Source of the DNA: Pedobacter sp.
Lineage (GTDB): Bacteria > Desulfobacterota > Desulfuromonadia > Desulfuromonadales > Syntrophotaleaceae
Reading direction: 5' to 3'
Assembly (NCBI GenBank): GCA_050253415.1
Contig: JBFWJC010000002.1
Location: forward strand, 1-64,000
Length of the DNA stretch: 64,000 nt
Position 1 is the first letter of the stretch. Each line of letters starts with the position of its first letter. The notes beneath the pieces are model-generated. The model was not told the DNA's origin, did no database searches, and was given only the letters and a program-made list of their open reading frames with translations. Both the position numbers and the translations under genes were made by a program. Below are positions 17,518-34,266 of the stretch, in pieces.

Positions 17518-17889
17518 ACTTCCTCCCGGTCCAGATAAGTATTATTGATTTTCTAGGAGGTGGTTGTTCCGGGACTTCGTTTTTGCTGCAAAGCCGTATC
17601 CTGTTTTAATAATACCAAACTTACTTAATGTTCGACATCGAATCACCCTAGTTTTCTAGGCACCCCTGACATGTGCGAATCATCGAAGGCAGAAGTGTTT
17701 ATATATCATCCCAGATTGTTAACAGCGGACAGATGTGGTTAAAAACAAGATTCTCATGAACCCTGGATTGCGAGAAAACCCCGTCTGGCGAACCGGATGG
17801 GGTTTCTGTGTTTTGGAACTCGTAACTTGTCATTTTTCACTAAATACGACGCGGATCTCTATGGAACTAGGTCCGACTCACATTACAAA

Positions 17890-18921: not shown

Positions 18922-19341
18922 ATTAGGAACGTAAAAACGTTTCTAGGGATTTACCTGATCTTGCCCCACGGACTCTCAGAAACTAAACAATGTAGTTTAC
19001 TTGCAATTTACTTCAGCCGACCAAGAAGGTCAACAAAGTGTCGCGAAAGTTGTGTCGGCAACTCTGGTGGATAGAACTCGGTTGACTTACGACCTATCCT
19101 ACGGTGGGTGTCAGGGCATTTGTCGCCCCCGGCCCATCATGGGCATCGATCCTGTCTCACATGTTGTGTTGTTGATTTAAAATGTCGCCAGAGGTCAATG
19201 CTCTGGTATTCTTACTGATCCTGATTTTTTGAAAATTCGGGGGAGTGTCCCTATTTTTTGCAATAACAAAGACAGAATTTCGTGTAGGGCATGCCTCCCC
19301 GGACTTTCAGATGCTCAAATCAAGTAGCACCCCCAAAAAAA

Positions 19342-19371
19342 ACAGGGCCTGCAATTTTTTGCAGGCCCTGT
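19342..19371 (-). terminator. Rho-independent terminator downstream of the RelA/SpoT gene
   Basis: ACAGGGCCTGCAA-TTTT-TTGCAGGCCCTGT preceded by an A run (T tail on the minus strand). Confidence 0.65.
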
Positions 19372-19518
19372 CAAGGTTAAGCGTTTACCAGTTTAGTTTT
19401 CCAACTCTCAGCCGTCACCATTAGGTCTTTTCATGTATCCCTCCGTTTCAGCCTTTGTCTTGATAATACGACTTTTGCTAAACTTGTCAAGAATTTTATT
19501 ATAAATTATTTTAATTTA

Positions 19519-21258
19519 TTAAGCTCTCATCTCGTTACCTTCACGTATAATCGTTTCAATAATTTCATTATCACATAGTCCCTGCTGTAAAGAATTTTCC
19601 GCGAGAGGAATCAAGCGATCAAGTATCCTATTACGCTCTTCACACCTTCCTAGGTAGTCATAAGCTTTCGCCAAGGTATCAAGGGTATCAATGTCTTCGC
19701 TACTATCTATATCGAAACTTTCACTCAAATTATTTAGGTTTTTTTCTATAGAGTCAACTATGTCTTTTTTAATTTTTATGGCGCTATACATACTTTTGAC
19801 CTTAATCATATCTAGGGCATAATACAACAGGTTGTTATATAAATTATAGTTCCCATCATCATTTTCAAGACACTCCAAGGTTAAATAATAAGCCTTTTTA
19901 AGCATATTAACTTTCTTAATAGCATTTTTTACACAATCCAATTTTACTAATTCTGACTTATGCCAAAGATAATATCCGTATACCTTCGGAAGATATTTCT
20001 TGATGTGTTTATAATCAGATTCGGGTATTTCAACTGAATCTTCAAACCCCTTTTCTTCTATTTCTTTATATATACTATATGCTTCATTGCATTTTTTCAA
20101 AGATAGGTCTACAAGCCAATTTTGTCCATAAGCCTGGGCAAGTCTCATTTTGACTAGCAAAAAATCTGGGAAAATTTTTTCGATCTGCTCATATAAAATC
20201 AATGCGTCTTCTGCCTCTTTTTTTAAATTTGTTGACAAAAGACAAAAGGCATAATTCATACTCGAATAATAATAGAATAATTTTTTATCTTCATACTTAT
20301 CGTCAGCATATTTAAGATAAAGATCTTTGAATAATTTTCCAGACACAGAAAGTTTATCTATTTTTTCATTGTTTCTATCGGTAGAAAGGGACAATCCCTC
20401 CTCCCGTAAGCTCCTCGCTTCAACATATGTATCTATGTCACCCTGATCAATATTATGTTGTATAAAAAGATCAATAGTTTTTTGGTCAGATCCAACAGAT
20501 TTCAGTTTTAAATGGCCCACTTCTTCACAATTATCATCTAATATTTCAAGATGTATAGCATCAGCATATTCACCACAAGCATCAGAAAATTTCTTTAAAA
20601 TATCAAGGTGTCGAAGAATGCTATTTGGATTTCTTATTTTTAAATCACTATTTTTCCCTTTATTAAAGGAATAACCATACTTGTGGTCAACCTCTCCCCA
20701 TGCGTCTTCAAACACCGTCCTTATTTGTATCTCTACAGGTAAATAATATGTTTTTTCTTGAGAACTAAGTTTGTTAATTTTTTTATTAAGCCTTGCTACT
20801 ATATGAATGCTAGAATACTCACTACCTCTTTGCACGACGTTATAAATGCCATCTACTTCTAGATTTACTGATACATCCCTAAGCATTAAACCTATTTTAT
20901 CGTTAAATCGGTTTGAATAAAATATAAGTTCTTCTAGGCCATCCTTTTTAAAAGGATTAGGATCTAAACTGTTATTTCTAAGAACAATATTTAATAATTT
21001 TTCAAAGATATTTACCATATCAACACGAAATAAAGTTATCAGTCTTAGACCAATAACATCCGTGACATTTAGAATATCGTAATCAATTTTTCCTTCTTGT
21101 TTTTTTATAGATACCTTTTCAATCAATTTTTCTTCGGTTTTAACTCTTGTTTTATATGCATAACAGTCCGAAAGAACCCCGGCTTGTTTAAGTGCATTTA
21201 TTAGGAGTTCCTCTCCTTTTCGACCTTCGCTTTCAAGAAGCAACGCACTATATTCCAA
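19519..21258 (-). CDS. RelA/SpoT synthetase-domain protein with a long helical/TPR-like C-terminus
   Basis: RVKTEEKLIEK, TDVIGLR, YSSIHIV and EIQIRTVFEDAWGEVDHKYGY; TTG start after AAGGAG; visibly very AT-rich. Confidence 0.88.
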   Translation of the reverse strand: MEYSALLLESEGRKGEELLINALKQAGVLSDCYAYKTRVKTEEKLIEKVSIKKQEGKIDYDILNVTDVIGLRLITLFRVDMVNIFEKLLNIVLRNNSLDPNPFKKDGLEELIFYSNRFNDKIGLMLRDVSVNLEVDGIYNVVQRGSEYSSIHIVARLNKKINKLSSQEKTYYLPVEIQIRTVFEDAWGEVDHKYGYSFNKGKNSDLKIRNPNSILRHLDILKKFSDACGEYADAIHLEILDDNCEEVGHLKLKSVGSDQKTIDLFIQHNIDQGDIDTYVEARSLREEGLSLSTDRNNEKIDKLSVSGKLFKDLYLKYADDKYEDKKLFYYYSSMNYAFCLLSTNLKKEAEDALILYEQIEKIFPDFLLVKMRLAQAYGQNWLVDLSLKKCNEAYSIYKEIEEKGFEDSVEIPESDYKHIKKYLPKVYGYYLWHKSELVKLDCVKNAIKKVNMLKKAYYLTLECLENDDGNYNLYNNLLYYALDMIKVKSMYSAIKIKKDIVDSIEKNLNNLSESFDIDSSEDIDTLDTLAKAYDYLGRCEERNRILDRLIPLAENSLQQGLCDNEIIETIIREGNEMRA

Positions 21259-21285
21259 TTGATTCTCTCCTTTTTACAAACTTTC

Positions 21286-21579: not shown

Positions 21580-21949
21580 GTTTATCGGCTTTCCAATAAG
21601 TTATCTCGGATTGCTTTTCGGTCGATCAAACGAATATGGGCGGGTCTTCTAACAACTCCTGATCAATAGGAAAGGCCCTCCGATTTTCCTGGCGGGCCTT
21701 TCGCGTTTGGTGAGTGGTGATTTGTCTGGGATGTAGGGATCCCTAGTACCTACCATCGTTCGATAATGCGCAAATAGGAGGACAGACCTGCCTGTATAGT
21801 GAGTGCGGCCTGGTGACGCATTAATGCTCGCGCCCTGGAAGGACAGGTCGGATTCATGAATAAACTCCCTATTTTCTCCAAAATAATTGAAATAATGATG
21901 AATTTTTGCGATTCTTCTCAAAAGAAGAAATGCGCTGAAAAATGGATAG

Positions 21950-22063: not shown

Positions 22064-22354
22064 ATGGAAAAATCTCTGCTGCAGCAGATCAAAAAAAGAC
22101 GATTGATGCTGGGTTTCAAGCAACACGATATGATGATGCGCATCGGCGTATCCCGTCAGCAATACCAACGTTTGGAGGCCAAGGGCAATCCGCAACTAAG
22201 TACACTGGAACTGATTGCTGAAGGCCTTAACAGCGAACTAATGCTTATTCCCAAAGAAAAAGCGCTGGCCGTGATAGCTGTGCTTGAAGGGGCGCAGGAA
22301 AGGAAAAACCTGTCTGACGACCCGTGGCAGGGCATCCTTGATGATGCTCTATGA
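22064..22354 (+). CDS. XRE-family HTH regulator (HipB-like antitoxin)
   Basis: IKKRRLMLGFKQHDM...GVSRQQYQRLE..GNPQLSTL; RBS AAGGAG; acidic DDPW tail. Confidence 0.85.
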   Translation: MEKSLLQQIKKRRLMLGFKQHDMMMRIGVSRQQYQRLEAKGNPQLSTLELIAEGLNSELMLIPKEKALAVIAVLEGAQERKNLSDDPWQGILDDAL

Positions 22355-22446
22355 GCTATCACGATAGATGTTTTGACCGGGCAAGTTTCGCAACCTTAGT
22401 TACGCATAACTTGTTGCGCCATCGGATCAGACCGGGTGCTGAAATT

Positions 22447-22583
22447 CCTGCAAGCCAGGACATTGCCAGGATTCAATCAGAATTGGTGGAGGGTTTTGAG
22501 CCAAGAAGCCCCGGCGGGTCTAGAGCAATAACAATTGGCGGTTTTGGTGTCAGAAACCTTGGTGGTTTTCATAAGAATATGCA
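22447..22583 (+). repeat. IS21-like terminal sequence, copy 1 of a 137-bp direct repeat
   Basis: Internal sub-repeats of about 25 bp (TGGxGGxTTT...AGAA), ending AGAATATGCA; close copy at 24878-25014. Confidence 0.7.
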
Positions 22584-22830
22584 CTTTGTGCGCAACCGGA
22601 GCCGACCCCCAGGCCCTTGATTGCATTTCCGTCTGTTTTTCGTTGTGTGACCCTGGACTCTTAGTCATATTTTTTCGGTGAATTTTTCATTTTTTCATTT
22701 CATACAGAAAACGATGTAAAATCATATTGTTGTCCTTTAGACCTCGAAAGTAAACCCCTTGCCTTAAGTCTGAGGGTAGCAAAGGTCGCGACATGGACCA
22801 CCTTATGGTTATAGAGAGTTCCAAGCTTTC

Positions 22831-23541
22831 TTAGAATTGATCTCTGTCGAGGTAACGGCGTACGGCCAAAATACCTTCTTTTTTCATCACATCAAGAGGT
22901 GTCGCACCGTCAAAATGTCGATTGGACTGGGTAACCCAGCGATAGGCCAAATCAATGTTGTGCGGAAAGGTGATGCGCAGGGATTTATGTATGCCGAGAA
23001 GATGTCCCGCCCTTTCAAATAGATCCTGACTATCATCAAACGGGGCTCCGTTGCGATATTTGGAAAGGGAGTCAACGGACAAGCCGAGCAATGCGGCCTG
23101 ATCTCTGGTGTCCAACTGCCAGAGATCAAAAAGTTGGAACACTATCTTTGCCAGTCTTTGTCGGCCCTCGGATTCATGCAAATCGACTTTAAAGTGACCA
23201 TTTAGCGTGATATCCTCATCAATTTCGCGATTGATTTTTTCGAGACAATACTCAGCAAAGCCACTTTTCTCGCCTTCTATAAGCGCCTTGCGCAAGGCCT
23301 CCTTTTTGGCAACATCCTGGAGGATGATCGATGCGAGTATTGTTATCCCCTCGTCTCTGACATGCAGGACCTCCCCTTCCGTAACTTGAGAGGTATCAAG
23401 GTCTTCAGCAGAATATCGATAGACACGCAAGGGGTTTTCCCTATCCCCATCCGGCGATTTAGCATTGTGGCCTGTAACACGCAGAACCTCCTTGATGGTA
23501 CCTAAGGGGTTCTGTATTTTGATGCTGATTTCAAAAGGCAT
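22831..23541 (-). CDS. Antitoxin-like protein: Xre/MbcA/ParS-type C-terminal half with a ParD-like internal segment
   Basis: LFDLWQL...QAALLG...ERAGHLLGIHKSLRITFP...RWVTQSNRHFDGATPLDVM...VRRYLD; internal ALRKALIEGEKSG. Confidence 0.75.
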   Translation of the reverse strand: MPFEISIKIQNPLGTIKEVLRVTGHNAKSPDGDRENPLRVYRYSAEDLDTSQVTEGEVLHVRDEGITILASIILQDVAKKEALRKALIEGEKSGFAEYCLEKINREIDEDITLNGHFKVDLHESEGRQRLAKIVFQLFDLWQLDTRDQAALLGLSVDSLSKYRNGAPFDDSQDLFERAGHLLGIHKSLRITFPHNIDLAYRWVTQSNRHFDGATPLDVMKKEGILAVRRYLDRDQF

Positions 23542-23734
23542 AACGTTACTCCACCGATTCGTCTCCCACTGAAGAATTATGTTTGGTTAGTGCAGGAGCA
23601 ATCATGCTCCTCGAGCGTAACGCCCTTCGCATTAACACTGACACCGTAACTGCAATATTTCATAATATACTCGGGAGTGCCTACGAAACTAGTGGCGATC
23701 CAAAAGAGTCACAACGGGCGGAAATACGGAGCCT

Positions 23735-24765
23735 CTAGGAGTGATTCCACAATTGGTTAAAAATCGCATGATTACAGTTGGTTGTCATGGCTTGCGGCCT
23801 TGCCATGGTACCTAGGTCTGATTCCACGATTGCCGGGGGCGGGCAGATCGGCCGGAAGGAACGAACCCCTAGGTTTAGTTCCCCAATTGGCGCAAAACGC
23901 CATGATTACGATGAGTTATCCTGCTTGATGGACCTATGCCAGTACCTAGGTCTGATTCCACGATTGGCGGGGATCGTTGCTCGGGCCAGAGTGCCGGAGC
24001 CCTAGGAGTGATTCCACGATTGGTGGAAAAGCCCATAATTACAGTTGGTTATCATAGCTTGCGGCCTTGCCATGGTACCTAGGTCTGATTCCACGATTGC
24101 CGGGGGCGGGCAGATCGGCCGGAAGGAACGAACCCCTAGGTTTAGTTCCCCGATTGGCGCAAAACGCCATGATTACGATGAGTTATCCTGCTTGATGGAC
24201 CTATGCCAGTACCTAGGTCTGATTCCACGATTGCCGGGGGCGGGCAGATCGGCCGGAAGGAACGAACCCCTAGGTTTAGTTCCCCGATTGGCGCAAAACG
24301 CCATGATTACGATGAGTTATCCTGCTTAATGGCCCTATGCCAGTGCCTAGGTTTGGTTCCACGATTGGCAGAGAGCTTCACCTTGGTCGGAAGTGCGGAC
24401 TATTAAGGAGTGGTTCCATGATTGGCGAGAAACGTCATGATTACGGCTAGTTGCATGATTTGAGCAAATTTTCGCTATCTAGGTCTGATTCCACGATTGG
24501 CAGGGATCGCCATCCTGCCCGGAAGCGCGGGCTATTGAGGAGTGATCCCACGATTTGCGAGAAAAGCCATGATTACGGCGAGTTGCGCGATCTCAACAAT
24601 TGCCAAGCTATCTAGGTTTGATTCCCCGATTGCCGTGGGCGCCAGATCGGCCGGAAGGAAAGGACCCCTAGGTTTAATTCCACGATTGGCGAGAAGCGGT
24701 ATGATTACAGCAAGTTGCACGTGTTGAAGGGGGTTATTCTCTATCTAGGTCTGATTCCACGATTG
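23735..24765 (+). repeat. Non-coding array: 16 copies of a 21-bp box at alternating ~77/~57-bp spacing (~134-bp higher-order unit)
   Basis: Consensus CTAGGTCTGATTCCACGATTG starting at 23735, 23812, 23869, 23946, 24002, 24079, 24136, 24213, 24270, 24347, 24404, 24479, 24536, 24612, 24668 and 24745. Confidence 0.95.
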
Positions 24766-24877
24766 CATCGCCCCGATTTCCCCAAAACTATTGGCCTATG
24801 GTTAGAATATGTCTCGGAAGTTGTCCTGGATAAATTAAAACTTTCATTTTGGGGTAAAACCTTGGGGGCTCACAACC

Positions 24878-25014
24878 CCTGCAACCCAGGACATTGCCAG
24901 AATTTTATCAGAATTGGTGGAGGGTTTTGAGCCAAGAAGTTCCGGCGGGTTTAGAGCAATCACAAGTGGCGGGTTTGGTGTCAGAATCCCTGGCGGTTTT
25001 CATCAGAATATGTA
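24878..25014 (+). repeat. IS21-like terminal sequence, copy 2 of the 137-bp direct repeat
   Basis: CCTGCAACCCAGGACATTGCCAG...TGGCGGTTTTCATCAGAATATGTA. Confidence 0.7.
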
Positions 25015-27731: not shown

Positions 27732-28247
27732 TTAGAGAATGGTCCTGCGCCCCGTTTCAAAGAGATGATCAAGGGCTGTTTTTTCGCTCCGATACCTAGC
27801 TTTCAGCTTCCTCTTACAACTTTCCAGTTCAGCTTCGAGGGTCTCTTTTTCCTGAGTGAGACGGTAAATGGTTTCCTGATATGCGCTTATAGTTGCGTCT
27901 TTCTCGGCGTCACTATTCTTAATGTCACTGTCCGCCTTTACCACCTCACATCCAACCTCAGCGATATCGTCATCGATGCGGCATTTGATGTATCTGTTTT
28001 TATAAAGTCGTCCTCGGTCAACCCCGACGGCGCCTGCAATGGCTGCAATATTGGCTGAACCTGTGTTCCTTGCCGCCGGAAACCTTTGCCCGGAAGATTT
28101 CAACTCCTCGACATAGTCCAACCACCAAAGGTACTGAATAATTGCCACTTCGGAGTTGTTGCCGCACGTCACCTCCTTCATTGCATTTTTGTCCCCACGC
28201 TTTATCTTGCGATACTCTGGATTGATAGATTCAGGGACCTCATACAT
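27732..28247 (-). CDS. Small HTH/coiled-coil accessory protein (TnpC/GinD-like)
   Basis: ANIAAIAGAVGVDRGRLYKN HTH-like segment plus a coiled coil; overlaps the upstream recombinase stop. Confidence 0.7.
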   Translation of the reverse strand: MYEVPESINPEYRKIKRGDKNAMKEVTCGNNSEVAIIQYLWWLDYVEELKSSGQRFPAARNTGSANIAAIAGAVGVDRGRLYKNRYIKCRIDDDIAEVGCEVVKADSDIKNSDAEKDATISAYQETIYRLTQEKETLEAELESCKRKLKARYRSEKTALDHLFETGRRTIL

Positions 28248-30051
28248 TGTCGCCTCCTATTGGTATTTCGGCATTGTCAATGCGCTCTATGAGCTTCTTG
28301 TAGAGGCTGGCCTTGTTCAGGGCATTATTCATCAGGGAATCATGCGCCATGGCCTCTGCCTTGTGCGCCTTATCTTCATACTCCGAGATCTTGTTAAGGT
28401 AATAGTCCCTCTCCTCGGCATCTGGAATCAGGTAGTCGCAGCCAAGGCACTGAAACAGGCCTGACCCACAGCTTGTCATGTCTGCGCAAATTCCCAATCT
28501 CCCGACCCTCTGGGCTTTGATATTCCTTTCAAGTAGGATCTTTTCAGCGGCATCTGAATTGATGATTTTGCCCTTGAAAAAGATGGATTCGCCCTTACGC
28601 TCTCTGATTTTATCAGCAACTTTCTTCTGGCGTTCGTCCTGGGAATGGTCATAAGTATCCTCAATCATCCTCTCATTACGGTGGCCGGTTTCCGCCATGA
28701 CTTGGTGTGTAGTCCATCCTTCCGCCATGCGGTCAGTGACATTATTATGTCGCAGTTGATGGGGATTGATGGAATACAAGTTTCCGTCCTCATCAACAAC
28801 ATGTTCCTTTGGGAGTTCACGATAGAGCCAAATATAAACGTTTCTTCGAGTAGCAACCTGAGGCTTATCAGCTTTTTCAAACCAGGAGACCGGAGGGCAC
28901 GGTGGCGTGTGTTTATCAATCAGGGCGTCGTCAATAACGGACGGCCCACCGCACCCAAACTTTACATCATCAAGAAAAGCCTGCATGTAAGGGCTATGGA
29001 ATGTTTGATGACTCAAGCGCTTCTCGGGAGGAGAAAGTTTTGGCCCCATCTTCAACAAAGCGGTTTGGTTTTCGGCAAGGTGGTGCTCGCGCATATATTC
29101 AATGCACTTCTTCGCCCTTACCAAAGCATCTCGTTGTTGAGGGGTGTTGTCGGTTGCCCGATGCTTCCATGTGTAGGTCAACAAAAAGCCCCGTTTCTTT
29201 ATGGGTAGATCCTTTTGAAGTTGCCGTGCGACAGCTTGTTGCTGTTTGATAAGATCGACAAGGAAAGCTCCCATCCCCTCAAGCTTGACTGTTGTCACCA
29301 AAATCCGGCCAGGCCCGTCAGGGTTGCCTGATTGCTTATATTCAGGGATAAGAACGGACATGTACCCTTTACGGTTCGGTTTCAGGCAGTCAATTTGCAT
29401 CGAGGAAACCTCTGTGCCGCGATTGGGAATGAGGCGATGAAGCCAGTAAGCAACTCTCCGCTCAAGCGGGGTTGTTTCGGCACTATAGATTTTGTCGATC
29501 TGAGCGAGTACATACTCAGGCACAGGCTTGACTTCAGAGCGCTTGCTTCTCAGAAAGGGGTTGGGCCTCGGGACCGGGAATTTAATGGGAGAAAAGGGCC
29601 ACCCGACCATTGAAGAATAGAAAACGTCAACGGCGCTCCAGTAGGAATTGCGTGTTCTCTGCGCTAATTTCTGTGACGTCAAGCGAGCCTGGAATAAGGT
29701 CATGCTTTGCCTGTCAACACTGTCAAACCAAATGTTATGCTCATTCAAAAACTCGCAAAAGGGTACTAGGTTGGATACGGCGACTCTTGTAGTGTTGAGG
29801 CTGACTCCAGTTTGAAGCCTGTATAAAGCATAGAGCTTAATTGGCTCACGATATGCTTCAGGAATGGTGATGAAACGAAGGGTCTTTTCGTCATTTGATA
29901 TATTCTTGGCGCCAGAAACCGACTTGTCCATGACCCACGCATTGTCCGACGGTTTGGCGGCTGAGGAATAAGTTGAAAGGAGCTCATATAGCTTGAGGTC
30001 AGAGTTCTCCTCATAAACTTCAGCAATATTGTAATATGCACTGCTACCCAT
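28240..30051 (-). CDS. Tyrosine recombinase 3 (large, Cys-rich C-terminus)
   Basis: PNRGTE (R), PHQLRH (HxxR), TGH...DTY (H, Y); tail GICADMTSC...CLGC. Confidence 0.88.
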   Translation of the reverse strand: MGSSAYYNIAEVYEENSDLKLYELLSTYSSAAKPSDNAWVMDKSVSGAKNISNDEKTLRFITIPEAYREPIKLYALYRLQTGVSLNTTRVAVSNLVPFCEFLNEHNIWFDSVDRQSMTLFQARLTSQKLAQRTRNSYWSAVDVFYSSMVGWPFSPIKFPVPRPNPFLRSKRSEVKPVPEYVLAQIDKIYSAETTPLERRVAYWLHRLIPNRGTEVSSMQIDCLKPNRKGYMSVLIPEYKQSGNPDGPGRILVTTVKLEGMGAFLVDLIKQQQAVARQLQKDLPIKKRGFLLTYTWKHRATDNTPQQRDALVRAKKCIEYMREHHLAENQTALLKMGPKLSPPEKRLSHQTFHSPYMQAFLDDVKFGCGGPSVIDDALIDKHTPPCPPVSWFEKADKPQVATRRNVYIWLYRELPKEHVVDEDGNLYSINPHQLRHNNVTDRMAEGWTTHQVMAETGHRNERMIEDTYDHSQDERQKKVADKIRERKGESIFFKGKIINSDAAEKILLERNIKAQRVGRLGICADMTSCGSGLFQCLGCDYLIPDAEERDYYLNKISEYEDKAHKAEAMAHDSLMNNALNKASLYKKLIERIDNAEIPIGGDNV

Positions 30052-30068
30052 TCCTTTCCTCCAAGAAC

Positions 30069-32012
30069 TTAAAGGTCAATGTTCCTAAGTGTGTCAGTGT
30101 AAGAATCCAGCCTATGTTTTTCAGATTGATATTCGCGATATTTAGAGAAAACTGCTTCAGGGATACCTTCACTTTGATAGGCCCTGACAAGCTCATCGGT
30201 AATTCTGATTTGAGAATCAACGAGGTTCTGCCATTTCTTGCGATATTTCTTGCCCGTGCATAGATTTGGGCACTCGGCACAGGATGTTTCATGCTCACTC
30301 CGCTTGCCGCAAGGCCCGTCCGCCATGTGTTTAACACACTGTCCAAATTCAACATCTCGGCGCCCGAGGCAAAAATCAACAAACAGTTGGCGCCTTTCAT
30401 CTTCGGTATAGGCCTTCAGAACTTCTTCGCCAACATGAACCTCAAATCGTTTATTCCAAAACTCGTTGTTCATGTCGGCAAGTTTTAATTGTTTCGCTTC
30501 GTTATAGTAGGTGTCCGCAGTCTGAATGGTCGCCCAATTGAACTGCGCCAGAAGTTCTGGAGTTGTTGCGCCATCGTTAATTAGATCTACCGCCAAGGTC
30601 TTGCGGCACTGGTGCGTACCAAAGCGCCACAGGGTTCCATCCCAGGTGCAAATGTTATGCTTGGCGATTAGTTCATTCATCTCCCTGATAATAGTGCCTG
30701 TGCTTAAAGGAGAGATGTCGCCCAGAAACTTTGAGTTTCTTCGGACAAAAATCTCTTTTATCTCTTTTCCAGAACGCATGTCCTTTGTAGATTCTGCCTG
30801 CTGGATAAAGGCGGCGAGAACATCGTTGTCGGCGACGTTTATGACATGAAACTTGTCTAGGCCTTTCAGCTTTCGGAATTTCGCTGTTTTATTGGGGAGG
30901 TATTTGAGCCAATACTCGTCTTTCAGTGGTTCGTGCCTGAGCCAATCCTCTTCAAGAGAATTGGCCTCACCGACACGCATCCCCGTCCCCGACATGATTT
31001 CAAAAATGTGTCGGACATCATTGTTGAGGTCTGCCCTGTGGAGGTAAATTTGATCTATCACCTCTTCAGGGATGAAGTCCGCATTTTTAACGTGGTCGTC
31101 TATTGCTCTAAATACGACGCGGCTAAAGGGGTTCTGATGAGGTGGTTGCTCGCCAGTAGGCAGCAGTTCAGGTTTTTTAACGAAGAAGTCAAGGAAGCTG
31201 TCCATCAAGCGAATATGTGAAAATACGGTCTTGGGGGCCATCCCTTTTCGCTCCGTATTTCTATTTCTATTGGTTTCTATCTCATGCTCAAGGTAGTGTA
31301 GAAGCTTGCGCATTAGGGTTATATTGATATCTCGCAGAGACAAGACTTCGGGTGCCGCGTCCTGAATGTACAGCAAGCAGGTCTTTATATTTTCGAAAGG
31401 AGTACTGGTAAGAGGTTGCCATTGGCCCCCCTTGTACCCATTCGCCAGGTAGGTCTTCAGGCACTGTCTGAAAGAAGCATTTTTAATCACACGGAAATCA
31501 AAGGTCCTGCTCGAAAGCGTATCGACGTTAAGTAGGTAAATAGACCAGACATCATCAGTTGTTTCGTAAACCTTCCGATTTTCCTTTGGAAAGAGTTTCT
31601 TCTGTAATTCGCCCTCGCGAAGCACGTGAGGGAGAATAAATTTTTGGTGCACTTTACCTATTGGAATACCATTAGAGCTTTCTGGTAATATGTATTCGAG
31701 CATAAACGCTTGGACTGAAACCTGTCGCCGATTAGCGGTAAACTGCTCCTTCAAGACCCTTTCCACGTAAGCGTCAAATTTCCCCGGCCAAAGCTGCTCC
31801 GCAATAGTGACCATGCTGCTCATAGCCATTTCCTTGTAGACAGACCTGAGCGGAGCGATCCCGTTCAGGCCATCACGCAGTTCATCAATTACCCTGACGG
31901 CTAATTCGGGGTCGCGGCGAAAGGCCTTGCTTGTCTTCCATGACGGATTATATTCAATCGTTACCCCATTGTAGTCCAGGGTGCGCATAGGTTTAGTCAT
32001 CACCACGCTCAT
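30069..32012 (-). CDS. Tyrosine recombinase 2 (large, Tn554 TnpB-like)
   Basis: TGMRVGE, THQCRKT, FNW...DTYY; tail GQC...PC...CAEC. Confidence 0.9.
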   Translation of the reverse strand: MSVVMTKPMRTLDYNGVTIEYNPSWKTSKAFRRDPELAVRVIDELRDGLNGIAPLRSVYKEMAMSSMVTIAEQLWPGKFDAYVERVLKEQFTANRRQVSVQAFMLEYILPESSNGIPIGKVHQKFILPHVLREGELQKKLFPKENRKVYETTDDVWSIYLLNVDTLSSRTFDFRVIKNASFRQCLKTYLANGYKGGQWQPLTSTPFENIKTCLLYIQDAAPEVLSLRDINITLMRKLLHYLEHEIETNRNRNTERKGMAPKTVFSHIRLMDSFLDFFVKKPELLPTGEQPPHQNPFSRVVFRAIDDHVKNADFIPEEVIDQIYLHRADLNNDVRHIFEIMSGTGMRVGEANSLEEDWLRHEPLKDEYWLKYLPNKTAKFRKLKGLDKFHVINVADNDVLAAFIQQAESTKDMRSGKEIKEIFVRRNSKFLGDISPLSTGTIIREMNELIAKHNICTWDGTLWRFGTHQCRKTLAVDLINDGATTPELLAQFNWATIQTADTYYNEAKQLKLADMNNEFWNKRFEVHVGEEVLKAYTEDERRQLFVDFCLGRRDVEFGQCVKHMADGPCGKRSEHETSCAECPNLCTGKKYRKKWQNLVDSQIRITDELVRAYQSEGIPEAVFSKYREYQSEKHRLDSYTDTLRNIDL

Positions 32013-33198
32013 TCTTTTTTTGACGCTCCGTTTGCTCTGTTTTGCGTTTTTTTATACGCCCAGCAACATGCTTTTGTGTCTCTTCGTTCATAGGGTCCAG
32101 ATAATTCAACAAAGGGGAACCGGACTTCCACTTGCGTTTATCAATTATGTAACGGTCATTTACTCCATCCTCTGGGTGCTTCATTGCATGAAGGACGAGG
32201 TTTTGTGTATCAGTGCTTCGCCCAGCATGGGTGACTATTATTTGGGGATCGAACCCAGCAAGATTTGCTGCCGTCTTGAGAATAGTAAGGAAATTGCTGT
32301 AACTAACAGCCTTGCCTTGGTGTTTTTGGTGTCGTTTTAGGTTCACGAAGAAAGGAACCAGAAGCCGCCCTAGGCGCTGTTCTAAAGGAGTTCTTTCGAG
32401 ATTGATATAGTCTTGCAGAATGCGTGCAGTATCCGGGTTACTAAAGTGGACCCAACCAATTTCGCTCTGAGTCACCTTTCCCTTTGACCGTGTTGGCCGA
32501 ACCTTTGCTTCATAGGGGTCGAACCCGTCAGCTTCAATGCTAAGGACTTCGTCTATTCGTAAGCCCTCCAAAGTCAAGGCGAAGATGGCCCTGTCTCGCA
32601 ATGTCCGAAAGCAAGCCATAATGCCGTTGACCTGGTCTTGGCTATAGTGCTTGAGTTTTTTATGCTTGGGTGGGTCAGGTAAACCCAAGAGGTTAATGTT
32701 ATCAAGGTATTGATTGGTCTCGATTTCCCAAATTTGGCCATAAACATAACTCTGCTTTGAGCGCTTATAGCCTTTTGCTTCGCGGGTTTTTCTAGATACA
32801 GGCTCGTTTTCGTCAATATTACCGTCCATATGCTTGTAAAGCTCCTTCAGGACAGTAATGTATGTCTTTAGGGTGGGGAGGTCGACCTGTGGATTAAGGG
32901 ACACCACCTGTTCTTTCAAGTCAGCCCCCATGCCGATGGTTCGCAAGTATACGTTGACATCCTTCTTGGTGGCATCAGTAAAAGTCTTGTTGCGCCCAAG
33001 GAGAAAATTCAACCATGGAACGATAATGTTGCCGTAAGTACGGGCGGTGCCGATAGACCTCAGCGCCTTAGATATGAGAAATGAGTTAATCTCAGCTACG
33101 AGCATAAGGTCGGGGTCTTCCACAATGCAGACCTCAACCTCCCTCTCTTTTATCGAGAAAACAGCGTTCACCAATCTATACCTACCCTTGTTACTCAC
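31993..33198 (-). CDS. Tyrosine recombinase 1 (Tn554 TnpA-like)
   Basis: LRDRAIF..EGLRIDE, THAGRS, RKW...LNY; probable GTG start at 33198 after GAGGAG. Confidence 0.88.
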   Translation of the reverse strand: MSNKGRYRLVNAVFSIKEREVEVCIVEDPDLMLVAEINSFLISKALRSIGTARTYGNIIVPWLNFLLGRNKTFTDATKKDVNVYLRTIGMGADLKEQVVSLNPQVDLPTLKTYITVLKELYKHMDGNIDENEPVSRKTREAKGYKRSKQSYVYGQIWEIETNQYLDNINLLGLPDPPKHKKLKHYSQDQVNGIMACFRTLRDRAIFALTLEGLRIDEVLSIEADGFDPYEAKVRPTRSKGKVTQSEIGWVHFSNPDTARILQDYINLERTPLEQRLGRLLVPFFVNLKRHQKHQGKAVSYSNFLTILKTAANLAGFDPQIIVTHAGRSTDTQNLVLHAMKHPEDGVNDRYIIDKRKWKSGSPLLNYLDPMNEETQKHVAGRIKKRKTEQTERQKKNERGDD

Positions 33199-33291
33199 GC
33201 TCTCCTCCTCGTTCCGTTTCCCGAGGGTAAACATTAACCTTCTGCAATAAACCAACAAGACTTCTTTAACACAAAAATTCACGATAGTAAA

Positions 33292-33322
33292 CAAAAAAGG
33301 TGCCTATAAATACAGGCACCTT
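33292..33322 (-). terminator. Terminator just inside the element end, blocking read-through from pncB
   Basis: Minus strand reads AAGGTGCCT-GTATTTAT-AGGCACCTT followed by a T run. Confidence 0.65.
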
Positions 33323-33368
33323 CAGGATTATTTATTGTGAAATTGGTTTATTGTGAAGAGTTTATCAA

Positions 33369-34058
33369 CTAAACATGAGCCATGGTGCCGACCGGTGGCA
33401 AACCCAGTTGGCGGGCCAGGTGCATGTTGCTGGTTCCCGCCAGGTAGTCCGGAATTTCACGGTTGAGGATATCCAGTACCCGTTCCTGCCACTGGCGGTT
33501 GAAGCGGCGGCGGGTGCCGAAGTCGATAATCCGCAGTCCGTCCAGCTGGCCGCGCTGCTGCAACAGTGCGATCTTTTCGAAAAGGCGCCGCTGTCCCGTA
33601 GCATAATCGGGCCGGGGGTAGGCGGCTCTGGTATGGACCTCGTTGATGATCGACAGGCCGTAGATTTCAAAGAGGGTGACCTGCAGCAGGGGACCGTGCA
33701 GGCGCAGCTCGATGTTCTCGCTGTCAGGGCGCAGCGAGAGGTGGTTCATCTCGAGACGCACCGTGGCCAGATAGTCCAGGAAATCAGGTTTGAAATAGCC
33801 CAGGGTCGCCAGGTAGCGAATTTCGTCGTCTTGAAAGCGTAGCGAGCACAGATGCTCGAATTGGCGACGGATCTCCGGGATCAACCGCCGGAGTTGCTTG
33901 TTTTCGGGATTCCGGCACTTGAATTTCCATTCGGTGTCAGCCCCCTCGAATGCACTGCAGTGGTAAAAGGCCTGCAACATGGTGAGCTTGTACAGGTCCG
34001 TATCCAGCAGGGTCTCGATAATCCAGGGCATGTTTTGTGTCTGTGCGGTCATTGTCAT
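33369..34058 (-). pseudogene. pncB: Nicotinate phosphoribosyltransferase, 5' half only
   Basis: LLDTDLYKLTM, DFGTRRRF, GTSN, then GTMAH followed immediately by V-stop; about 230 codons versus about 400 expected. Confidence 0.9.
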
Positions 34059-34266
34059 CTCCGGAAGAGGTGAACTGAACGTTACCATATCCTTTGCAAG
34101 GGAAAAACCCGTTTTGCGCAAAAAGGTCCGGAGCGCAGCTAGTGGACGGGGCCAAATTTTTAAGGGACAATGGCTTATGAGAGAAAGACCAAGGGGATTT
34201 CGAAGTTCGGCTGGTATCGGTCCGGGCGCATTCATGGAATAGGCATTTCATCCAGGGGATTTTATC

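Follow-up and report, generated by a model that had tools for sequence, protein, structure and literature searches.

What role is served by a small alarmone synthetase that is fused to a long helical-repeat half and that occurs as a rare gene on horizontally acquired DNA? The question is raised by a gene on the reverse strand (19519..21258) of the window, the whole stretch of 64,000 nucleotides (nt) analysed here (positions 1 to 64,000 of contig JBFWJC010000002.1, from a Pedobacter sp. placed in the order Desulfuromonadales). A first-pass annotation, made from the sequence alone, had seen in it a candidate single-gene anti-phage system in which a RelA/SpoT-type synthetase is followed by an autoinhibitory sensor for a phage protein. 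We find that the product is, close to certainly, a fusion of a small alarmone synthetase (SAS) of the PRel3 type with a module resembling tetratricopeptide repeats (TPR). It is probably a one-protein stress or anti-phage switch, because relatives pair the same TPR module with typical immune enzymes. The narrower reading, in which the window gene is a stand-alone single-polypeptide sensor-effector of a biological-conflict system, probably an anti-phage one, is given about an even chance.

The synthetase head and its assignment to PRel3

The coordinates 19519..21258 (-) correspond to exactly one open reading frame (ORF) of 579 amino acids (aa) plus stop, with a TTG start. This start is credible because GGAG at 21270-21267, within a ribosome-binding site read from the sequence as AAGGAGAG (21265..21272, (-)), lies 8 nt 5' of the TTG and because the N-terminus lines up with the N-termini of the homologues. 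Residues 1-205 (20644..21258, (-)) make up a RelA/SpoT synthetase domain, delimited by Pfam PF04607, by invariant columns and by matches to RelQ and RelP. The Pfam model RelA_SpoT covers residues 37-198 at E 1.2e-10 (42.1 bits vs a cut-off of 27), which bears out the synthetase motif set seen in the first pass. In an alignment of 53 family members, R38, K40, K48, D67, G70, R72, Y148, S150, H152, P174, E176, Q178 and R180 are invariant (53/53), as is the EDAWGE.DH helix; the first catalytic motif, RVKTEEKLIEK, spans residues 38-48, and TDVIGLR contains D67. As all catalytic residues are invariant, the head should be active, presumably as a RelP/RelQ-like ATP-dependent pyrophosphokinase. No HD, TGS or ACT domain was found by Pfam in the 579 aa, and the AlphaFold2 model built on the same alignment consists of the RelA/SpoT homologue (RSH) fold plus helices alone, so that the reported absence of hydrolase, TGS and ACT domains holds.

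The lysine that the first pass had noticed at the usual serine of the first motif (Syn1) is real and is a family trait. Serine occupies this column in 0/53 members; lysine is found in 33, among them the window protein, aspartate in 8, arginine in 7 and alanine in 2, and each of three further residues in a single member. The residue two before the stacking tyrosine is E, A or G across the family (mostly E-G-Y) vs N (NGY) in the aligned RelP chains. Both positions are taken by us to touch ATP and the acceptor base.

Residues 1-242 resemble RelQ and RelP most closely. In Foldseek and VIA-align comparisons they matched RelQ 5dec_D with a Z of 16.8 (root-mean-square deviation (rmsd) 2.9, 182 residues aligned, 24% identity) and RelP 6ewz_B with a Z of 15.7; the rows shown held no toxSAS entry, and since TPR proteins dominate these lists this is not evidence of absence. 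When the family profile was run against all PDB sequences, RelP (E 6e-10 to 3e-9) and RelQ (2e-5) were found, together with a borderline match to 3l9d, a further putative GTP pyrophosphokinase (E 0.96). At E <= 10 the search returned no other RSH entry and nothing labelled toxSAS or CapRel, the presence of a CapRel chain in the searched PDB copy being unconfirmed. RelP and RelQ (SAS2 and SAS1; 6ewz, 6fgk, 5dec, 5ded) have the same catalytic motifs but no TPR module, and the window family differs from them by the missing Syn1 serine, by the residue before the stacking tyrosine and by an extra helix, 121-132. NCBIfam gave only a sub-threshold YjbM match to the window protein.

A word-indexed search yielded 156 relatives, the best of them 57% identical; among the best 120 of the 156, nearly all are 560-626 aa long, have PF04607 precomputed and bear generic names only. 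Full-length homologues share 30-57% identity and are conserved over the whole length, with a mean pairwise identity in the family of 45% in the RSH domain vs 30% in the TPR module. The assignment to a subfamily relies on elimination in one genome and on shared motifs. Dataset S2 of Jimmy et al. 2020 (PMC7229694) gives Mariprofundus micogutta ET2 the three proteins RelA, Rel and PRel3. This genome has exactly three RelA_SpoT matches, two long RSH genes and locus L006. The L006 protein is related to the window protein along its full length (37% identity, residues 3-560), and the window protein is itself placed via L006. In the PMC7229694 alignment, the pRel3 rows of Psychrobacter, Jannaschia and Pseudoruegeria carry the family motifs YSSIHIV and E.Q.RT.FED.WGE.DH. 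Its table names at least 10 PRel3 genomes among 24,072 classified, including a Psychrobacter and a Bradyrhizobium, and both genera are also among the family loci found here. Because the third M. micogutta RSH is L006 and because the motifs are common to the pRel3 rows, the family is equated with PRel3, and the window protein is close to certainly a PRel3-type SAS-TPR fusion. The first-pass comparison with CapRel is not supported at subfamily level, given the RelP/RelQ matches and the DsRel/RelP-like motifs. PRel3, with the same motifs and overlapping taxa, is merely a name from phylogeny, one of eight paraphyletic subfamilies in the sections of PMC7229694 concerned. In the literature searched, no functional study, activity, structure, trigger or role was found for it. 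What is already known is the SAS + TPR architecture as such and the fusion of a regulatory domain to an RSH toxin; PRel3 is named and unstudied.

A close architectural parallel is of the DsRel/SAS-TPR kind. According to PMC10434055, Tde-SAS (TDE1711) of Treponema denticola likewise joins an N-terminal synthetase-only head to a C-terminal TPR domain in one chain, and this domain lowers kcat, raises Km and acts as a brake. The helix after E.Q.RT is also similar, reading LQDAWAEVEH in the DsRel rows of the PMC7229694 alignment and FEDAWGE.DH in the window family. However, Tde-SAS is a protein of 410 aa with four TPR motifs (~180 aa), whereas the window protein has 579 aa and 14 helices (~320 aa), and the Syn1 serine kept in those DsRel rows is absent from 53/53 members here. 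T. denticola lacks a long RSH, Tde-SAS being the sole synthetase homologue described for it in PMC10434055; the window gene, in contrast, is a rare, horizontally acquired extra (1/233 genomes, see below). Membership in DsRel was rejected, as size, repeat number, Syn1 serine and the PRel3 classification all differ.

Five SAS subfamilies act as toxins in toxin-antitoxin pairs. In CapRel, a phage sensor made as a fusion, the C-terminal domain is small, zinc-finger-like and non-TPR. The window protein shares with CapRel the joining of an RSH head to a C-terminal regulatory domain in one chain, the lack of a separate antitoxin and the location on mobile DNA, and the logic of the two may match. It differs in its C-terminal domain, an all-helical TPR solenoid, and in its motifs, since the capRel alignment rows have QHAWAT and keep the Syn1 serine while the window family has FEDAWGE.DH and lacks it. 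The toxSAS modules (FaRel, FaRel2, PhRel, PhRel2) have a conserved antitoxin gene next to the toxin gene in an operon of two or three genes, which the window gene does not, as judged from 18 loci at E <= 1e-3. Membership in CapRel or toxSAS was therefore rejected for want of a conserved antitoxin and for the differing motifs and C-terminal fold. Small upstream ORFs at L004, L005 and L014 were considered as antitoxins and dismissed, as they are homologous neither to one another nor to the neighbours of the window gene.

The host genome (G000) has further RSH genes, namely a long Rel, a 375-aa SAS without TPR and an HD-RSH-TGS protein. The 375-aa stand-alone RSH (L023, G000:C1:1700759-1704157) matches RelP/RelQ in the PDB and has a weak PADLOC PDC-S33 match (E 2e-8); its C-terminal ~170 aa are without assignment.

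The TPR-like module and the heads it is found with

The first-pass description of the C-terminal region as helical repeats is supported by structure prediction. The AlphaFold2 model of the window protein (mean pLDDT 91.3, pTM 0.87) consists of an alpha/beta part (residues 1-200), a long helix (211-240), a low-confidence or disordered stretch (241-258) and 14 helices (259-578). From the model, from conservation and from fold matches, a TPR-like solenoid of 14 helices was assigned to residues 259-579 (~320 aa; 19522..20484, (-)); the repeat stretches VKMRLAQAYG and TLDTLAKAYDYLG are present in the translation. The connecting helix and linker, defined from the model, fill residues 206-258 (20485..20643, (-)), and L218, K222, F224, Y231 and I235 are conserved there. 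Pfam TPR models matched the window protein below threshold only. Residues 259-579 resemble the TPR domain of LGN (3sf4_C; Z 18.7, rmsd 4.2, 251 aligned, by Foldseek/VIA-align) and also PilF, OGT and IFIT1/5, all peptide-binding TPR solenoids, although for repeat proteins such Z values indicate the fold class only. Within the module Y356, R372, G428, W432, A456, N475 and N476 are invariant and Y479, Y480, L526, D527 and T528 nearly so, and its net charge is about -12, i.e. acidic. Although its pairwise identity is lower than that of the RSH domain, the module has helices that are sharply conserved, so that the C-terminal half constitutes a TPR-like module of a specific and conserved kind.

The same module is also found with other heads. 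When the C-terminal 375 residues were searched alone against 1.84 billion representatives, 147 matches were obtained, nearly all of ~560-630 aa with the module starting near residue 210. Pfam was run on 47 of the 147; RSH is the commonest head (39/47, six of the 39 bearing an extra head), two sequences are N-terminally cut fragments, and six have another or an unknown head. In these six non-RSH-headed relatives the family hidden Markov model aligns the module colinearly (E 1e-34 to 1e-68). The RSH is replaced by a CARF-like head in P0151 and P0155 (PADLOC CARF6 model, E 1e-73 and 1e-77), by a TIR head (TIR_2) in P0198 and by a metallophosphoesterase head in P0222 (PDC-S60, E 2e-24), and the heads of P0191 and P0206 are unassigned. 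In P0138 a ThsB-like TIR domain (PDC-S66, E 3e-53) is added before a complete RSH-TPR protein, and in P0210 a caspase-like domain (Pfam Peptidase_C14) takes this place. P0184, P0187, P0196 and P0213 have an unassigned N-terminal extension of ~300 aa before RSH-TPR, equal in size to that of P0210; these are caspase-like candidates. Homology between P0184 and P0210 extends from end to end and takes in the GHG and D.C.SG motifs, and the atlas gives P0184 a caspase lead of 0.91, to be read as a lead only. The invariant residues of the module are largely kept in all ten aligned head variants, the exceptions being Y479, replaced by A or C in three of the caspase-head variants, and, in some variants, isolated changes at Y356, G428, N475, N476 and L526-D527-T528. 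Domains of the TIR, caspase, metallophosphoesterase and CARF types are characteristic components of prokaryotic immunity, and in the literature searched there was no description of this TPR module with TIR, caspase, phosphoesterase or CARF-like heads. A TPR-type C-terminal module with swappable heads (TIR, caspase, phosphoesterase) recalls STAND/Avs-type sensors; the window protein differs from these in being much smaller, in the invariant residues of its TPR module and in the lack of any nucleoside triphosphatase (NTPase) or P-loop domain in its 579 aa by Pfam, PADLOC or the model.

The two halves, RSH (1-245) and TPR (256-579), were folded as separate chains. The docking score was 0.74, compared with 0.00 for the best of three controls; as the halves belong to one chain, docking is expected, and the result bears on where they may touch and not on blockage of the active site. 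The mark concerned is reached by 116/157 solved complexes and by 2/215 mismatched pairs, counts that hold roughly, the alignment used being our own. The runs agreed in at least 92% of contacts, with partner pLDDT of at least 87. The predicted interface is small (23-26 contacts) and brings RSH residues 119-136 together with TPR residues 350-388. Helix 121-132, the one that is extra with respect to RelP/RelQ, belongs to a stretch by which the domain exceeds the Pfam model, shortly ahead of the Y148 loop. The prediction supports the view that the halves of the window protein dock on each other.

A separate observation concerns the 926-aa caspase-RSH-TPR relatives, in which a conserved gene of 110-121 aa lies immediately upstream (L058:1108-1473, L061:1634-1966 and L062:6531-6875). 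Its products are 61-68% identical between these loci, have no Pfam or PADLOC match and were found nowhere else in the loci studied. The gene is likely a partner specific to this caspase sub-branch; as a general partner of the family it was rejected, given its restriction to L058, L061 and L062.

Readings of the function

The preferred reading, a single-polypeptide sensor-effector, can be worded as a mechanism. At rest, the TPR module would hold the RelP/RelQ-like synthetase at low activity. A trigger, which by analogy with TPR grooves of the LGN/OGT type would probably be a peptide or protein, would bind the conserved groove, and the head would be released or assembled. It would then pyrophosphorylate a purine nucleotide at its 3'-OH, with ATP as the donor and (p)ppGpp or (p)ppApp as the product, the 3' end of tRNA being the less likely acceptor, and the burst of product would arrest the growth of the infected or stressed cell. 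The idea of a TPR brake draws on the Tde-SAS precedent (PMC10434055) and on the predicted docking.

A conflict role is plausible because of module swapping, patchiness, mobility and part of the neighbourhoods. As for patchiness, the family profile matched 1/233 species genomes of the same order at E <= 1e-20, this one being G000 itself; it matched 0/6 genomes of the genus and 0/16 of the family. Neighbourhoods were taken from a pattern scan of 185,579 species genomes, which gave 21 loci. Seventeen were analysed (L002-L018), with 146 neighbour ORFs within 6 kb scanned; L001 was left out because it is identical to the window, L019 because a contig end cuts it, and L020 and L021 because they match weakly and in part only. 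Metagenome contigs added 37 loci, of which 18 were analysed (95 neighbour ORFs) and the others left out, 17 as short or partial and two as apparent duplicates (L047 of L042, L059 of L060). Mobile-element genes are present at 8/35 loci: a prophage at L004, IS21 at L005, an integrase at L031, Tn7-like elements at L033 and L040, GPA at L044, IS3 at L060 and a relaxase at L061. A defence gene, a mobile-element gene or both occur at 15/35 loci. Two Psychrobacter species carry the family gene at different loci. No conserved flanking ORF was found among 18 loci (E <= 1e-3), and ~150 nt past its stop codon the window gene has an intrinsic terminator of its own, a 14-bp stem followed by a T run (19341..19372, (-); read from the sequence, with a fold z-score of -4.19 for 19333-19457). 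The gene is for these two reasons considered monocistronic, which agrees with the first-pass view of a single gene.

The claim of a defence role survives in weaker form: it is plausible through the immune heads that share the TPR module and through patchiness, whereas adjacency to defence genes is moderate. A credible defence gene lies near the family gene at 9/35 loci (26%), a modest share that is a description without background control and not an enrichment test. These neighbours are a type I restriction-modification (R-M) system directly upstream at L003, PDC-M65B and HEPN at L007, SoFic at L013, a mad3/mad8-like giant ATPase at L014, Lamassu-like SMC and metallophosphoesterase effector-like genes at L017, TIR-TM at L037, PDC-M19A/B, caspase and ThsB-TIR at L040, SMC/Lmu-like and Mrr genes at L060, and type III R-M and Mrr at L062. 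PADLOC matches set aside as generic were IstB (to DrmD), RecQ (DpdF/PsyrT), ArsR (Csa3) and ThiF (E1-E2) at genome loci and TniQ/TnsB, PolA and two Rep/UvrD helicases at metagenome loci.

Besides this modest adjacency, several results weigh against the preferred reading. About half of the loci lie among housekeeping genes, e.g. MetRS, TyrRS/AnmK, FBPase, RecQ, TrmB, PBP1A and PolA. Among 2.9 million viral contigs there were 44 pattern matches, none of them a relative, and PADLOC gave the window protein only a weak PDC-S33 match (E 0.003). Among solved structures, the closest relatives are RelP and RelQ, which are non-toxic. With a mean net charge of about -0.6, the RSH domain is neutral, which does not favour the binding of tRNA. 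The conservation within the TPR module would suit a ligand that stays constant more than an arms race against phage proteins; such a ligand could be a conserved phage component or a conserved host component. Lastly, the predicted contact between the halves involves helix 119-136 and does not imply that the active site or catalytic cleft is covered. For these last two reasons, the helical region as an autoinhibitory sensor for a phage protein is not supported in the form in which the first pass had put it.

Of the side observations made at these loci, one concerns aminoacyl-tRNA synthetase genes, which adjoin the RSH-TPR gene at 3/17 genome loci. A TyrRS-AnmK pair does so at L006:752-8227 (Mariprofundus) and L018:7007-11662 (Psychrobacter), and MetRS at L002:9983-14428 (a Thiodiazotropha metagenome-assembled genome). 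An insertion hot spot may explain this, as may chance, or it may hint at a connection with tRNA.

A wider proposal, which we put forward tentatively and rate below even, is that the TPR half defines a modular, hitherto undescribed family of immune sensors that lack an NTPase. Such a sensor would comprise a conserved TPR module of ~320 aa with a fixed ligand site (R372, W432, N475-N476, Y479-Y480, D527-T528) and swappable heads, PRel3 being the commonest besides TIR, caspase, metallophosphoesterase and CARF-like ones. If this is true, PRel3 would be the first family of alarmone synthetases that a TPR receptor turns on directly during infection, and it would realise the CapRel principle a second time with an unrelated structure. 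The reason for which bacteria maintain more than one small alarmone synthetase is known in part, and PRel3 has no role assigned to it. A TPR half acting as a receptor that switches a RelP/RelQ-like head would tie alarmone chemistry to a new, compact type of receptor without NTPase, and would offer a tractable one-gene system for the control of an adjacent enzyme by a TPR solenoid.

The rival that survives best, possible though on the whole doubtful, is a regulatory SAS like DsRel or Tde-SAS. The TPR brake would set a low rate of (p)ppGpp synthesis, a stress-reporting host protein would raise it, and the gene would be an accessory stress regulator spreading horizontally, with no part in immunity; stringent-response tuning modules would then travel on integrative islands. 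Several of the results given above speak for it: the nearest solved relatives are the housekeeping SAS RelP and RelQ, about half of the loci lie among housekeeping genes, and the conserved TPR residues would fit a constant host ligand. In addition, there is no antitoxin and no adjacent hydrolase, and FEDAWGE.DH resembles the DsRel helix and not the CapRel QHAWAT in the alignment rows concerned. Yet a regulator of this kind would hardly be expected to be so rare, with one genome in the order and the few PRel3 genomes (at least 10) of the published table, or to have foreign base composition and lie on an integrative island in a host that already has a long Rel and two further RSH genes. Moreover, the Syn1 serine of the DsRel and RelP rows is lost in 53/53 members, and the TPR module also occurs joined to TIR, caspase and metallophosphoesterase heads, none of them a domain of stress regulators. 

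It is improbable that the gene is a selfish, addiction-type toxin that stabilises its mobile element, with the TPR half as a cis antitoxin inactivated on element loss or stress and with phages uninvolved. The fused two-part architecture without separate antitoxin would suit this, as would the integrative island, the members on Tn7-like elements (L033, L040), on a relaxase mobilisable element (L061) or beside insertion sequences (L005, L060), and the toxin-antitoxin-type genes near the window gene (HTH_3; Xre/MbcA/ParS-like antitoxin). However, a covalently fused antitoxin cannot be diluted separately, so that classical post-segregational killing does not follow, and many members sit singly between housekeeping genes, with no mobile element nearby. 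Equally unlikely is a signal generator, in which the triggered RSH head makes a nucleotide messenger for other proteins to read or, in the fused variants, for the TIR or caspase head: RSH does sit between effector head and TPR in TIR-RSH-TPR and caspase-RSH-TPR, and a CARF-like head of nucleotide-sensor type can replace RSH on the same module, but the 579-aa form has no partner gene to read a signal and the RSH-only form is by far the commonest.

The insertion into pncB and the surroundings of the gene

The window RSH-TPR gene is horizontally acquired. The foreign composition and the accessory location given in the first pass were both confirmed: in 200-nt windows the G+C content is 0.27-0.34 from ~19700 to ~21300 vs 0.41-0.51 on either side, and the gene is flanked by the two halves of a pncB (nicotinate phosphoribosyltransferase) gene that has been split. 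The N-terminal part of pncB meets the inserted DNA at CTCATG (33374..33379, (-)), and the C-terminal part starts another contig (G000:C1:381-898), with the same hexamer in front of it at G000:C1:381-386. These halves are the only two NAPRTase matches of the genome, and from the sequence pncB seems to be inactivated by the insertion. In a complete genome of the same genus (G202) pncB is uninterrupted, and the stretches that match C1:931-381 and window 33374-34117 directly adjoin there, overlapping by 6 bp (CTCATG). Therefore window 1-33373, which runs off the contig start, and C1:1-380, where the insert ends, are inserted DNA of at least 33.7 kb, a size that assumes colinear contigs and leaves out any gap between them.

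On the side of the 33374 junction (window 28240-34235) there are a DUF6262 gene, two tyrosine recombinase genes (647 and 603 aa), a 433-aa ORF without Pfam match and the truncated pncB, the recombinase genes thus standing at one end of the insert. Downstream of the window gene lie a SnoaL-GGDEF gene and a PAS histidine kinase gene. Upstream, the order is HTH_3, an Xre/MbcA/ParS-like gene, a repeat array, a RecD2-like helicase gene, DUF6262, the recombinases and the truncated pncB. The HTH_3 gene overlaps an 89-aa ORF of no known family by 4 nt (22064-22620, (+)). The Xre/MbcA/ParS-like gene (22831-23541, (-)) encodes a 236-aa protein with Xre-like HTH and MbcA/ParS-type toxin-binding domains, and no RES-type toxin gene follows it. 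Both genes may be remnants of toxin-antitoxin modules.

The array between the Xre/MbcA/ParS-like gene and the RecD2-like helicase gene (23710-24765) consists of about eight units of 132-134 nt, each of which contains the ~29-nt core CTAGGTCTGATTCCACGATTG twice, at spacings of 56/77 nt. As the sequence between the cores is repeated too, the array is not of the CRISPR type, and Rfam gave no match for it; it may represent iterons or an origin of the island. Over window 15500-39000 Rfam gave no match at gathering level. Another repeat, of ~137 nt and 82-90% identical between copies, is present at 22447-22583, 24877-25012 and G000:C1:146-284. These are its three copies in the genome; all lie inside the insert, one of them ~100 nt from the island end on C1.

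Right after the stop codon of the RSH-TPR gene, a near-consensus promoter was noted on the same strand (19333-19490, (-); TTGACA, 16 nt, TATTAT; 11/12 matches). A transcript from it would stop ~120 nt on, at the strong terminator, and the unit could, by its sequence, yield a small RNA or a leader with an 8-codon ORF; this promoter/terminator unit is not conserved at the other family loci. Two short segments, 17772-17825 and 21676-21841, bracket the GGDEF and RSH-TPR genes and have far higher depth than their surroundings in the contigs of other metagenomes, some of which join them directly. Joints from 17.7-17.8 kb to 21.7-22.4 kb were considered as deletions; this was rejected, and the short sides and much higher depth point to copies of a dispersed repeat. 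The gene arrangement itself is unchanged in contigs from four DNA runs.

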